Shown piece by piece: positions 13,084 to 15,879 of a DNA stretch of 32,000 nucleotides. Where the stretch lies: NCBI RefSeq assembly GCF_007748075.1, contig NZ_CP036280.1, positions 120,001 to 152,000 of the forward strand, written 5' to 3'. The translations under genes were made by a program, and so were the position numbers. The first letter of the stretch is position 1, and each line of letters starts with the position of its first letter. The notes under the pieces were generated by a model. It saw nothing but the letters and a program-made list of their open reading frames with translations. It ran no database searches and was not told the origin of the DNA. This DNA is from Mucisphaera calidilacus (GTDB lineage Bacteria > Planctomycetota > Phycisphaerae > Phycisphaerales > Phycisphaeraceae).

Positions 13084-13404
13084 ATGAATCACCCCCGAAC
13101 GTCCATCGCACTCATCATCGGGCTCATCGCCCAGTGCTTCGCCGTCGCCTGCGCCCACGCCGCCCCCTTCGTGAACCACAAGCTGGGCTGCGACAGGCCC
13201 TGCTGCTGCGGAGCCCCCTGCGAGGCGGACGACACACCCGCAACCGACCCTGCCGACGCCTCGCCGGCCCTCCCGCCTATCTTCACTCACCTGCCGACCG
13301 GCCCCACCTTCACGTCCGTCGTTCTGCCCAATTTCTCTGATCCCACCTCGCCACGCACTTCTGTCACATTCTCCCGCGCTACGCTTTGCATCTGGCTCCA
13401 TTAG
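13084..13404 (+). CDS. secreted Cys-cluster protein, type A copy 1 (106 aa)
   Basis: Signal peptide MNHPRTSIALIIGLIAQCFAVACAHA, then GCDRPCCCGAPCEADD, a Pro-rich tail, and C-terminus LCIWLH. Paralogous to 13992-14339. Weak SD. Confidence 0.6.
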   Translation: MNHPRTSIALIIGLIAQCFAVACAHAAPFVNHKLGCDRPCCCGAPCEADDTPATDPADASPALPPIFTHLPTGPTFTSVVLPNFSDPTSPRTSVTFSRATLCIWLH

Positions 13405-13455
13405 TGACCTACTCCATGTAAGTCCAGTCTTATCGTTCGGATCGCCAAAGATCCC

Positions 13456-13470
13456 GCGGCAACGTGCCGC
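13456..13470. promoter_or_regulatory. GC-rich dyad GCGGCA-ACG-TGCCGC in the A1-B1 spacer
   Basis: Perfect 6-bp inverted repeat ending 39 nt upstream of the B1 ATG. A related element sits at the equivalent position upstream of B2 (14371-14394). Confidence 0.3.
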
Positions 13471-13508
13471 AACAAAATCCGACCAATCAGTCTTTTAAGG
13501 AGAAAGTG

Positions 13509-13676
13509 ATGAAAACCATCCTGACCCTCGCCGCTGCCTCGACCCTCGCACTCACCCTCGGCATGGCCACCGGCTGCGAAGCCATGGGCGGCGAAGAGGG
13601 CGAAGCCATGCTCTACTCGAGCGACGCGACCACCGAATGCAAGTGCGACGGCTTCGACTACGACGCGATCAAGTAA
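13509..13676 (+). CDS. Cys/acidic-rich micro-lipoprotein, type B copy 1 (55 aa)
   Basis: Strong SD AAGGAG 6 nt upstream. Product MKTILTLAAASTLALTLGMATGC carries a lipobox, followed by EAMGGEEGEAMLYSSDATTECKCDGFDYDAIK. Paralogous to 14430-14645. Confidence 0.65.
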   Translation: MKTILTLAAASTLALTLGMATGCEAMGGEEGEAMLYSSDATTECKCDGFDYDAIK

Positions 13677-13773
13677 TCCCGGCAGCAACCCATCGATCCG
13701 CGATCCATCAGACCGAACCCGTCAGCGGGCTCATCACGGATCCCCTGAAGCTGTCAACAACACCTGATCCCGC

Positions 13774-13804
13774 GCGACCCGTACACCACGTGCGGGTCGC
13801 TTTT
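13774..13804 (+). terminator. Rho-independent terminator after module 1
   Basis: Stem GCGACCCGTAC, loop ACCAC, stem GTGCGGGTCGC (11 bp with one G-U pair), followed by TTTT. Confidence 0.7.
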
Positions 13805-13991
13805 CATAGAGCCGTCGCCGCACGCGTCGCAACGCCATCACAACCTGGTGCGCCCGATCGATCCAACGAAGCATCACCGGTAATCGCGCCGGCAATTCCC
13901 TCTGCGCGCAGCAAGCCATATCGGGATGAGGCCTGAGAATCTTTCCGGATCCCGTATACTGCTGGTTGGGAAGACCGCAATCGGGAACACG

Positions 13992-14339
13992 ATGAAGCAC
14001 TGGATCCTGCTGGTCACGTTCATCTCCGGGACGCTCCTCCACGGCGCTGCGCTTGTCTGCCACGCCTCGCCTGCTGTCGGACCCGCAGAAAGCACCTGTT
14101 GCTGCATCCTCGCCTGTCCCTGCGATGACGACTGCTCGGCCGACGCCACTCCGCCCCTGCCGCCCGTTGACGAGACCGACCCGATCCTGCTGCCGAGCCG
14201 AGGCGAAACACCCGACCTCACGCAGCCGGTCCTGCGCATCGTCACGCTGACCCATCCGCTCTCAAGGTCTTTCCAGGACGCCGCCGCGCGTGCTACGTGT
14301 CGAACCTCCCGGCCGCTTCTCTGCGTCTGGCGTCACTAG
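13992..14339 (+). CDS. secreted Cys-cluster protein, type A copy 2 (115 aa)
   Basis: Signal peptide MKHWILLVTFISGTLLHGAALVCHA, then STCCCILACPCDDDCSAD, a Pro-rich tail, and C-terminus LCVWRH. An alternative upstream ATG exists at 13926. Confidence 0.6.
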   Translation: MKHWILLVTFISGTLLHGAALVCHASPAVGPAESTCCCILACPCDDDCSADATPPLPPVDETDPILLPSRGETPDLTQPVLRIVTLTHPLSRSFQDAAARATCRTSRPLLCVWRH

Positions 14340-14370
14340 CCGCACCCTGAACCAGCATCCGAACAGTCGA

Positions 14371-14394
14371 CATCGCCGCACCGTTGCCGCGATG
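14371..14394. promoter_or_regulatory. GC-rich dyad/hairpin in the A2-B2 spacer
   Basis: CATCGCCGCA-CCGT-TGCCGCGATG forms a 10-bp stem with one C-C mismatch. It contains TGCCGC ending 40 nt upstream of the B2 ATG, the same position as in the A1-B1 spacer. Confidence 0.3.
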
Positions 14395-14429
14395 CGCTCG
14401 TCCCCATCTTCCAGTAACGGAGACTTGAT

Positions 14430-14645
14430 ATGCACAGATTCTCAACCCTGATCGCTGCCACCTCACTGACCTTCGCACTCGCCCTCACCGGCGGCTGCAA
14501 GACCAACGATGGCGGAGGCGACGCCATGATCCTCGCGTCCGAAACCAAAACCTGCAGCACCAGCTGTGACACCCCCTGTGACAACGGCAAAGCCAAGACA
14601 CAAAGCGCTTGCTGCGGAGGATGCGGAGGCGAGAGCGATGAGTAA
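14430..14645 (+). CDS. Cys-rich micro-lipoprotein, type B copy 2 (71 aa)
   Basis: SD GGAG 7 nt upstream. Product MHRFSTLIAATSLTFALALTGGC carries a lipobox, then a mature part with 8 further Cys (CSTSCDTPCDNGKAKTQSACCGGCGGESDE). The segment GDAMILASETKTC aligns with GEAMLYSSDATTEC of copy 1. Confidence 0.65.
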   Translation: MHRFSTLIAATSLTFALALTGGCKTNDGGGDAMILASETKTCSTSCDTPCDNGKAKTQSACCGGCGGESDE

Positions 14646-14994
14646 ACAGAACCGGCTCGCAATGATTGTTCTCTCGGCCTCACTGCTGCTGATCGCCGGC
14701 TGTTCGACCGCGCCTCAGGCAGCCAGCAGCGAACCGACCGACGGTCACGACCGCGTCATCCAGCAGGAGCAGGTCACACTCTACGCCCTCGGCCTGAGCT
14801 GCCCGCTCTGCTCCTCCAACCTCGACAAGTCCATGCTCGAGGTGGAAGGCGTCAAGGCCGTCAAGGTCAACCTCGCCGACGGACAGGTCGTGATCGACCT
14901 CGACCCCGACGCGGGTGTGACCGTCGGCGAACTCATCGAGACCGTCGAGGCCAGCGGATTCACCGTCGACCGCGTCGAACTGCCGCAGATGTAA
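14638..14994 (+). CDS. exported heavy-metal-associated (HMA) domain lipoprotein
   Basis: The ATG overlaps the stop of the preceding gene (gATGAGTAA). Lipobox LLLIAGC. The HMA ferredoxin-like domain carries the metal loop LGLSCPLCSSNL followed by VEGVKAVKVNLADGQVVIDL. It resembles CopZ/MerP but is lipid-anchored and extracytoplasmic. Confidence 0.8.
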   Translation: MSKQNRLAMIVLSASLLLIAGCSTAPQAASSEPTDGHDRVIQQEQVTLYALGLSCPLCSSNLDKSMLEVEGVKAVKVNLADGQVVIDLDPDAGVTVGELIETVEASGFTVDRVELPQM

Positions 14995-15007
14995 TCACCT
15001 CCCACGC

Positions 15008-15040
15008 GGCTGACGGGCTTCACCGCCCGTCAGCCCTTTT
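15008..15040 (+). terminator. Rho-independent terminator after the HMA gene
   Basis: Perfect 11-bp stem GGCTGACGGGC / GCCCGTCAGCC, loop TTCACC, followed by CTTTT. Confidence 0.75.
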
Positions 15041-15069
15041 GCTGTCACACCGCCCGAAGGAATCAACAC

Positions 15070-15879
15070 ATGCGTCTGGTAGCCCTCCCACTCCTCCTCG
15101 CCACCTTCCTCCCGCTCGCCGCCCCCGCCGTCGCCACGGCTCAGGAAGCCATCCGGATGCCCGCCGCCACACAGCCCGGACGCGACCGCGTTGTCGTCCG
15201 CGAACGGGTCTTCTGGCACAGCCTCGACGACGGCATTGACCTGCTCCACAGCGACACCGAGGTCGCTTACGGGCTCACACGCGACTTCGCCGTCAACCTC
15301 AGCATCCCAGTCGTCTTCGAGTTCGATGAACACGGCGACAACGACCAGGGCATTGGCGACCTCCATATCATGGGCAAGTACCGCTTCTACCTCGCCAATC
15401 CCGGGCCCGTCGACACCTTCCGCGCCTCCGCGCTCTTCGGCGTCGACATCCCCTCATGGGACCCCGACATGTCCTCGCGTTCCTTCAACCCCATGGTCGG
15501 CGCCGTCGTCACACGCATCACCGGACGCCATGGCATCAACGCCGCCGCCCGCTACAAGGTCAAGTTCGATGGCGTGCCCGAACCCCTGCTCGCCGGCGAG
15601 GGCGAGGCCGACACCCTCTGGGCCGATGCCTCCTACCTCTACCGGCTCTCACCCGATCAATACTCCGCCGAAACCACCTCCAGCGCCTACGCCGTCGTGG
15701 AGACCGGCCTGATCTACGAGACCAACGGCGACGCCCAGTGGGTCATCTCGCCCGGCTTCCTCTACGAAGCCCAGACCTGGGCCCTTGGCGTCAACGTCAC
15801 CCTCCCCGCCTGGCAACAACTCGACCACCGACCCGACCTCGACCTCGGACTCGCCATCGACCTCCGCTTCCTCTTCTGA
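15070..15879 (+). CDS. predicted outer-membrane beta-barrel protein
   Basis: SD GAAGGA. Signal peptide MRLVALPLLLATFLPLAAPAVATAQ. Alternating amphipathic strands throughout, and a C-terminal ...IDLRFLF with terminal Phe typical of BAM substrates. Loosely resembles the MetA-pathway/'transporter' OM barrel family, from memory and at low certainty. Confidence 0.65.
   Translation: MRLVALPLLLATFLPLAAPAVATAQEAIRMPAATQPGRDRVVVRERVFWHSLDDGIDLLHSDTEVAYGLTRDFAVNLSIPVVFEFDEHGDNDQGIGDLHIMGKYRFYLANPGPVDTFRASALFGVDIPSWDPDMSSRSFNPMVGAVVTRITGRHGINAAARYKVKFDGVPEPLLAGEGEADTLWADASYLYRLSPDQYSAETTSSAYAVVETGLIYETNGDAQWVISPGFLYEAQTWALGVNVTLPAWQQLDHRPDLDLGLAIDLRFLF

Follow-up and report, generated by a model that had tools for sequence, protein, structure and literature searches.

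A conserved HMA lipoprotein and outer-membrane barrel pair, with an accessory family of exported Cys-cluster proteins, forms a candidate copper module in Mucisphaera calidilacus and related bacteria

We analysed a stretch of 32,000 nucleotides from the genome of the marine planctomycete Mucisphaera calidilacus (NCBI RefSeq assembly GCF_007748075.1, contig NZ_CP036280.1, positions 120,001 to 152,000; hereafter the window), which contains six consecutive + strand genes coding for a heavy-metal-associated (HMA) lipoprotein, an outer-membrane β-barrel and two pairs of small exported proteins, here called A and B. We found that the HMA lipoprotein and barrel genes lie side by side in many genomes, and that elsewhere this pair is linked to genes for copper-type repressors and multicopper oxidases. 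We propose, with a probability of about 0.55, that the genes constitute a periplasm-to-outer-membrane copper buffering and relay module of the Phycisphaerae and of a few other members of the Planctomycetota-Verrucomicrobiota-Chlamydiota (PVC) group. Both the metal-binding domain and the barrel fold are known, but we found no description of the two combined, and the module adds to them a new small-protein family. A sequence-only reading of the same DNA had pointed to six consecutive same-strand genes with exported products. All six open reading frames (ORFs) were recovered with exactly the boundaries given there, and each product has a hydrophobic N-terminal segment (maximum Kyte-Doolittle value over 12 residues, 1.97-2.69). 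The genes are the following:

13084 to 13404, + strand: A1, an exported Cys-cluster protein (type 1) of 106 aa, with a signal peptide ending in AHA/A, a C-x3-CCC-x3-C cluster, a Pro-rich linker and a C-terminal LCIWLH
13509 to 13676, + strand: B1, a lipoprotein-like product of 55 aa, with an acidic mature part of 33 aa that has a single CKC pair; a Shine-Dalgarno sequence, AAGGAG, lies 7 nt upstream
13992 to 14339, + strand: A2, an exported Cys-cluster protein (type 1) of 115 aa, with CCCILACPC, a Pro-rich linker and a C-terminal LCVWRH
14430 to 14645, + strand: B2, a Cys-rich lipoprotein of 71 aa, with a mature part of 49 aa and seven Cys, including ACCGGCGG
14638 to 14994, + strand: core component 1, the HMA lipoprotein, 118 aa, with the lipobox LIAGC and the metal loop GLSCPLC
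15070 to 15879, + strand: core component 2, the outer-membrane β-barrel, 269 aa, with a signal peptide ending in ATA/QE, the conserved mature N-terminus PAATQPG and a C-terminal RFLF

The small genes look coding by composition. The G+C content at third codon positions (GC3) is 0.81 in A1, 0.86 in B1, 0.79 in A2 and 0.72 in B2, as compared with 0.77-0.86 in the neighbouring genes for the M20 peptidase, MurB and the LCAT-like protein, and it drops to 0.45-0.66 when these four ORFs are read in shifted frames. Annotated M. calidilacus proteins are 100% identical to A2 and to the barrel. The stop codon of B2 reaches into the start of the HMA gene, with an overlap of 8 nt, and in several other loci the stop codons of A-family genes overlap or abut the HMA reading frame.

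The HMA lipoprotein matches PF00403 over residues 52-108 with 46.5 bits (cut-off 24.8; E = 4.9e-12), in line with the earlier assignment of an HMA domain with a CxxC loop, and GLSCPLC has the GxxCxxC form of a metal-binding loop. Its lipobox is canonical, as judged by pattern inspection. CopZ-type NCBIfam models matched the protein at 6e-12 and the best matches among PDB sequences were the metal-binding domains of Cu-ATPases and CopZ (1e-20 to 1e-8), whereas MerP matched at only 5e-4. The protein therefore shares its domain and loop with the CopZ/MerP-type metallochaperones (PF00403), and its closest matches are Cu(I) chaperones and Cu-ATPase domains. CopZ, however, is cytoplasmic and MerP is a soluble periplasmic protein, whereas the window protein is predicted to be exported and lipid-anchored. 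Moreover, among barrel-adjacent HMA homologues the CPxC loop is fixed (84 of 87) and a lipobox-like site is present in 73 of the 87, and the partner is an outer-membrane barrel instead of a P-type ATPase or a mer operon. Two of these homologues (L019:4471-5016 and L028:4435-4959) carry a Cys-rich C-terminal tail fused to the lipoprotein, for example CKTCNCVNCSCVIATQRCDAGCLCS; neither locus has an A gene, and in both the HMA gene is immediately preceded by a gene with a NifU domain.

The distribution of the pair was assessed by scanning with a six-sequence alignment of the barrel, which retrieved 47 loci from genomes and 55 from metagenomes. Most of the genome loci belong to Phycisphaerae, with a few from other Planctomycetota and from Kiritimatiellae and one from a bin labelled Verrucomicrobiota. 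An HMA homologue was found immediately 5' of the barrel gene and on the same strand in 87 distinct loci in total, including essentially all 47 genome loci and 39 of the 55 metagenome loci; the loci with no HMA gene at this position were mostly truncated contigs. Upon clustering of the neighbouring genes, HMA stood beside the barrel in 49 of 52 loci. Because no other neighbour family recurred in more than six loci, the conserved unit consists of the HMA lipoprotein and the barrel, and we regard these two as the invariant core, with the A proteins as an apparent common accessory in roughly two thirds of the loci. In two related genomes (L001 and L002; barrels 67% and 62% identical to that of the window) the order is M20 / A / B / HMA / barrel / MurB / LCAT, and in both the A gene is an uncalled but intact ORF with the same signal peptide, CCCxxxCxC and a C-terminal L(C/G)(I/V)WRH. 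The genes are syntenic in relatives, a point on which the sequence-only reading had made its interpretation depend, but the six-gene set it took as a whole is not the functional unit.

The window barrel showed no Pfam match at E ≤ 1, and its profile matched none of the PDB sequences. Among its 103 homologues, about 40 (30-45% identical) carry a precomputed PF13557 match, homologues at about 40% identity among them. An AlphaFold model based on a 32-sequence alignment had a pLDDT (predicted local distance difference test) of 91.6 and 12 strands, with segments 91-95 and 98-109 counted as one. Strand 1 begins about 17 residues past the predicted signal cleavage site, and the PAATQPG segment that precedes it was modelled at high confidence. 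The best Foldseek matches of the model were FapF (E = 1e-8) and the COG4313 channel Pput2725 (4rl8; E = 4e-7, TM score 0.63). On this model the protein is predicted to be a 12-stranded barrel with the COG4313/FapF fold, a placement which the sequence-only reading, listing all but the HMA domain as families it could not place, had not reached. The structures of Pput2725 and FapF are both 12-stranded plugged channels (PMC4493636, PMC5557850), and the COG4313/PF13557 channels (Pput2725, TcpY, SphA), together with FapF, resemble the window barrel in size, strand number and fold (Foldseek 1e-8 to 4e-7, TM about 0.6). The resemblance to the FapF system is confined to the barrel fold, as the periplasmic coiled-coil domain of FapF is missing and no Fap-like (FapA-E) genes are found nearby. 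The genetic setting also differs: the window barrel and its homologues are linked to the HMA lipoprotein and to copper genes, whereas the COG4313 and FapF relatives are linked to genes for aromatic or sphingosine catabolism or for amyloids. Nor could the barrel be assigned to the CopB/PcoB family, since it had no Pfam match at the above threshold and no PcoB was among the 50 best Foldseek matches in the PDB.

Copper is suggested by genes that accompany the pair in other loci. A repressor of the CsoR family (PF02583) is encoded in eight of them, immediately upstream of the HMA gene in L023, L047, L059, L060, L071, L072 and L078 and downstream of the barrel gene in L074. All eight proteins have the spacing C-x25-H-x3-C, which corresponds to that of Cys36, His61 and Cys65 in the Cu(I) sensor CsoR. 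CsoR is a repressor of copper-export operons (PMC7558416). A multicopper oxidase gene is found in six loci, immediately upstream of the HMA gene in L022, L025 and L029 and, together with a TolC-like gene, further upstream in L075 and downstream in L053 and L063. Four loci have genes for an extracytoplasmic function (ECF) sigma factor and a zf-HC2 anti-sigma factor upstream, which may be a periplasmic metal-sensing regulatory unit. L022, L025 and L029 (about positions 1200-4550) carry, in this order, genes for the ECF sigma factor, a zf-HC2 anti-sigma factor whose C-terminus is rich in His, the multicopper oxidase, the HMA protein and the barrel; L026 has the sigma/anti-sigma pair and no oxidase. 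An A gene is missing from most loci that have CsoR or an upstream multicopper oxidase, and A on the one hand and a regulator or oxidase on the other tend to alternate upstream of the HMA gene. Neither the window nor the recurrent neighbours in the loci include mer, ars or znt genes. Because of the linkage to CsoR and multicopper oxidases, together with the CopZ-like HMA protein, we infer that copper is the metal handled in M. calidilacus, and the linked partners are of kinds typical for copper excess. The soft-metal envelope role first put forward is thereby strengthened and narrowed to copper. The accompanying view of a self-contained set fared less well: 18 other ORFs of the window, scanned against Pfam, indeed yielded neither a P-type ATPase or RND pump nor a multicopper oxidase, Mer protein or metal regulator, but other lineages add a regulator, an oxidase or a TolC-like gene to the pair.

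The A proteins are 95-150 aa long, with a signal peptide, a cluster of the form CCC/CxCC…CxC, an acidic Pro-rich linker and the motif [LF]C[IV]W[RL][THIN] right before the stop codon. Both A1 and A2 fit this description of a family encoded just 5' of the HMA-barrel pair; in A1 the final Cys of the CxC pair is missing. A hidden Markov model (HMM) of type 1 A proteins, built from 20 sequences, was scored over 79 testable loci. It detected a match in 33 of them at E < 0.02, each on the + strand and immediately 5' of the HMA gene. A1, a training member, matched at 1.7e-17; four loci outside the training set scored 3e-6 to 5e-5, and the first off-target match came at E = 0.15. When any Cys-cluster ORF immediately upstream of the HMA gene was counted, the number rose to 51 of the 79. 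These include ORFs of two further types at the A position, type 2 (WSPAWCCC…CLLLV) and type 3 (CNCCC…CRCGC…PPPRDHRxTGVRLI). Across an alignment of 19 A sequences there is no variation at C36, C44 and W113 and hardly any at C38 and C42; the Cys positions are thus kept in homologues, as a metal-binding role had been said to demand. The Cys of the C-terminal motif is replaced at times by Gly, Ser or Asn.

The cluster of A2, C36-C37-C38-ILA-C42-P-C44, contains CxCxxxCxC, the motif by which CopY binds two Cu(I) (PMC7558416). By position, A2 is orthologous to the A genes of L001 and L002, whose products have CCCAVSCGC and CCCALTCGC, respectively, so that the C-terminal CxCxxxCxC of CopY recurs in A2 and its orthologues as CCCxxxCxC; we regard this as a resemblance and not as family membership. 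Among other A members the spacing within the cluster varies from 2 to 5 residues, and some carry CxCC, a motif like that of CopG (PMC7558416). CopY, CopG and the metallothioneins, however, lack the Pro-rich linker and the conserved C-terminal LC[IV]W of the A proteins. Unlike them, A and B are exported, are predicted to be disordered or lipid-anchored, and have no match to a known family.

Database searches returned few relatives of A. Neither A nor B had a match above noise in Pfam, NCBIfam or the PDB sequences, which for these proteins agrees with the earlier statement that they could not be placed. A word-indexed search of 5.8 billion proteins with A2 as the query returned A2 alone, and when 1.84 billion proteins were searched exhaustively with a profile of the A1 and A2 alignment, the matches were A1, A2 and the L001 orthologue, besides a cadherin-repeat protein that we dismissed as a compositional artefact. 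With an alignment of 24 A sequences, at least four proteins were among the matches listed. The A genes are uncalled in most public annotations, yet those at L001:4674-5108, at L002:4835-5203 and in many other loci are intact and conserved. Since the search of 1.84 billion proteins gave a single orthologue, the annotation gap is systematic. The A proteins are a genuine, widespread, largely unannotated and fast-evolving family of small proteins. In L042 (3877-4428), which comes from a metagenome-assembled genome based on Oxford Nanopore (ONT) reads, the A gene is split over two frames, with the Cys cluster in one and LCIWTT in the other; the split is probably a sequencing frameshift and not the mark of a pseudogene.

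The B proteins are less widespread. Their lipobox-like sites, ATGC in B1 and TGGC in B2, are non-canonical at position -3, whereas the L002 orthologue has LAGC, again by pattern inspection. Mature B1 has only two free Cys, and the mature lipopeptide for which eight Cys in 48 aa had been reported is B2, which has seven in 49 aa, the lipid-modified Cys included. The only Pfam signal of B1, a match to DUF6329 (E = 0.035), reached 14 bits where 26.8 are required, and we discarded it. The L001 orthologue of B2 is 50% identical and has CCGSCGG repeats and a His-rich tail; that of L002 is 37% identical and has scattered CxxC-type motifs. B orthologues keep a short motif at the mature N-terminus, and the Cys-rich tail varies. 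B2 and its orthologues resemble metallothioneins in composition. A B-family HMM found no significant match in the other genome loci, and B-type lipoproteins are confined to the Mucisphaera clade.

A1 and A2 are diverged paralogues, as are B1 and B2, and here the sequence-only reading stands: BLASTP aligned the A pair at E = 3e-7 (39% global identity) and the B pair at E = 3e-5, with a likeness that runs beyond the signal peptide into the mature sequence (A/S)M(I/L)L(S/A)S(E/D). The syntenic loci L001 and L002 have no counterpart of A1; one of these genomes has a Cys-free B1-like lipoprotein. Because A1 is closer to A2 (39% identity) than either is to the orthologues (30-33%), the A-B duplication is specific to the M. 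calidilacus lineage. Cys-rich modules nevertheless recur with the HMA-barrel pair, in L008 and as the HMA fusions of L019 and L028. In L008 (Phycisphaeraceae chromosome OZ245998.1) an A gene, a CEAC-repeat protein gene and a second A gene precede HMA and the barrel, an arrangement that parallels the A-B-A-B order of the window. The repeat protein (L008:3258-3752) is a secreted protein of 164 aa that consists almost wholly of CEAC/CxECEAC-type repeats, contains dozens of Cys and matches no Pfam family.

The scheme we propose resembles that of PcoB/CopB with PcoA and that of CusF with CusCBA, in which a periplasmic copper-binding partner is found beside an outer-membrane component. PcoB stands beside PcoA much as the HMA-barrel pair stands beside a multicopper oxidase in the six loci mentioned above (PMC7558416). 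The window barrel has, however, no sequence kinship to PcoB/CopB and no PF05275 match. Also, CusF and PcoC use Met, His and Trp, whereas the chaperone of the window is a Cys-based HMA lipoprotein, and the window has no RND pump. A review of copper homeostasis from 2020 gives no HMA-barrel route (PMC7558416); as ways of copper entry across the outer membrane it lists porins, the TonB-dependent NosA/OprC and chalkophores, and it treats the function of PcoB as uncertain. In a literature search of incomplete coverage we found no earlier description of the combination of an HMA lipoprotein with a barrel.

We suggest that thiolates capture Cu(I) in the periplasm, with the clusters of the A proteins acting as accessory buffers or donors; in the Mucisphaera lineage the B lipoproteins would join them as buffers or donors of Cu(I) for the HMA protein. 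The tethered HMA lipoprotein would gain Cu(I) by ligand exchange and dock at the periplasmic face of the barrel, through which the metal would leave the periplasm. Such a route, for detoxification or relay, would fill the role that CusF and CusC, or PcoB, have in the Proteobacteria, and in M. calidilacus the tandem A-B duplication would amplify the buffering layer.

Several observations weigh against this proposal. No Cys, Met or His residue that could point to a metal site is conserved in the barrel; the characterised members of COG4313 have been connected with taking up hydrophobic molecules, and FapF with the export of polypeptides, and not with metals (PMC4493636, PMC5557850); and a passive barrel is unable to drive efflux alone. 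In the oxidising periplasm, the Cys clusters may form disulfides instead of binding metal. The AlphaFold model of A2, from a six-sequence alignment, is uninformative (pLDDT 47, confident only in the N-terminal helix). We do not claim homology of type 1 A proteins to types 2 and 3, for which hhalign gave probabilities of 44% and 66%, on the Cys cluster only. Because B-type proteins are missing from most loci, they cannot be essential to the mechanism. Finally, most loci, this window included, lack a copper regulator or enzyme nearby, and the module of the window lies amid housekeeping genes of conserved synteny (M20 peptidase, MurB, LCAT-like, H+-PPase), a setting that fits constitutive acquisition too.

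The flow could indeed run the other way, with the barrel admitting copper, the HMA lipoprotein receiving it, and A and B holding it for cuproenzymes as part of a housekeeping acquisition system. The module is chromosomal, with native GC content and conserved housekeeping synteny, and no regulator is found in the window or in most loci; the known COG4313 channels are uptake channels (PMC4493636), and the known routes of copper entry across the outer membrane are few (PMC7558416), which leaves room for another. Still, the CsoR repressors, multicopper oxidases and TolC-like efflux gene attached to the pair are of copper-excess types, and amplified Cys-rich buffers suit detoxification more than supply, so that we hold acquisition to be unlikely, if a serious possibility. 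It seems rather improbable that the barrel is a minimal FapF- or Slam-like polypeptide translocon, which would export the A proteins by recognising LC[IV]W, or would expose the HMA and B lipoproteins at the surface, or both. In structure the barrel comes closest to FapF, a transporter that carries amyloid subunits across the outer membrane as unfolded, Sec-exported polypeptides (PMC5557850). The A proteins are likewise Sec-exported, are Pro-rich and predicted to be disordered, and have a conserved motif at the extreme C-terminus that could be a recognition signal. In Slam systems a lipoprotein gene is paired with an adjacent barrel gene, which is also the layout seen here. But the window barrel has no FapF-type coiled-coil, its first strand beginning so soon after the cleavage site (about 17 residues), and no FapA-E-like genes accompany it; the HMA-barrel pair is kept in about a third of the loci in the absence of A; and the fold matches the non-secretory channel Pput2725 equally well (TM 0.63). 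If true, a translocon would mean a protein chalkophore or surface copper trap in PVC bacteria and a new two-component route of secretion across the outer membrane.

Copper buffering and relay has also to be set against other chemistries and against the possibility that the small genes are not what they seem. The CxxC loops of HMA domains, like vicinal Cys pairs, also bind Hg, Cd and Zn, the CsoR family also includes Ni/Co and persulfide sensors, and the host was isolated from a shallow hydrothermal system (PMC8882080). Another thiophilic metal (Hg, Cd, Zn, Ag or Au), or thiol/disulfide redox stress, would thus be conceivable in place of copper. We consider this improbable, in view of the Cu(I)-sensor C-H-C spacing in 8 of 8 linked CsoR-family proteins, of a linked enzyme that is a multicopper oxidase, and of a MerP score far below that of CopZ; moreover, no MerA, MerT, MerR, ArsR or ZntA-type gene is present in the window or recurrent in the loci. 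Mercury in particular was set aside because MerP scored weakly and no mer genes were found. That A, B or both are spurious ORFs in GC-rich DNA, or precursors of peptides made by the ribosome and modified after translation (RiPPs) that are processed elsewhere, is scarcely credible to us: coding-like GC3 is found in the proposed frame only, and the frame, signal peptide, Cys cluster and C-terminal motif are kept at the same position over dozens of divergent loci. Such an explanation would account for A genes being uncalled in most public annotations and for the absence of A2 homologues from the word-indexed search, and the precursors of bufferins are likewise Sec-signal peptides with conserved Cys (PMC11626156). 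Bufferins, which are proposed to buffer periplasmic copper (PMC11626156), share with A and B their small size, Sec signal peptide and conserved Cys. However, the MNIO (DUF692)/DUF2063 partners and the DUF2282 match of bufferins were not found for A or B; 24 A-type sequences and the B proteins matched no bufferin family in Pfam or NCBIfam; and no MNIO/DUF692, DUF2063 or other RiPP-tailoring gene occurs in the window or recurs in the loci.

Around the six genes we noted the following putative signals:

13774 to 13800, + strand: terminator-like hairpin with a T-run, 3' of B1 (11 pairs, 8 of them G-C)
13933 to 13960, + strand: putative sigma-70-like promoter 5' of A2, a weak match (9 of 12 positions; one site against 0.3 expected in shuffled sequences)
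15008 to 15035, + strand: terminator-like hairpin between the HMA and barrel genes (11 pairs, 9 of them G-C, then CTTTTGCTGT)

The two hairpins coincide with the two terminators proposed beforehand; they are consensus matches only, and the region has three terminator-like sites against 2.0 expected. No Rfam family was detected in 12500-16200. By Pfam, the neighbours in the window include the E2 and E3 components of a 2-oxoacid dehydrogenase, a Ser/Thr kinase-FGE-sulfatase fusion, a MalK-type ABC ATPase, an M20 peptidase, MurB, an LCAT-like protein, an H+-PPase, RsfS, a LarC fragment, a GH5/dockerin protein and a pyruvyl transferase. The kinase fusion (3732-7895, - strand) is a protein of 1387 aa that has zinc ribbons and TPR repeats besides the Ser/Thr kinase and the C-terminal FGE-sulfatase domain, and is kept in the syntenic relatives. 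Between the genes for the MalK-type ABC ATPase and the M20 peptidase lies an ORF of 295 aa (10827-11714, - strand) with no Pfam match. It is not found in the syntenic loci, where L001 has a methyltransferase gene and L002 a PhdYeFM/PIN toxin-antitoxin pair, and the region looks like a variable insertion spot. Across positions 1-32000 the GC skew is negative in each 1-kb bin (-0.03 to -0.34), and the cumulative skew drops steadily over the 32 kb.

The passage of copper across the outer membrane is among the least understood steps of bacterial copper homeostasis. If our proposal is true, the CopZ-like lipoprotein and its COG4313/FapF-fold barrel would add a candidate route, in a phylum in which metal handling is essentially unstudied, and would connect with metals a family of barrels that has until now been tied to hydrophobic molecules and amyloid export. 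The A family matters for genome annotation and may provide new scaffolds for the binding of Cu(I). Because M. calidilacus grows in culture, these predictions are directly testable.

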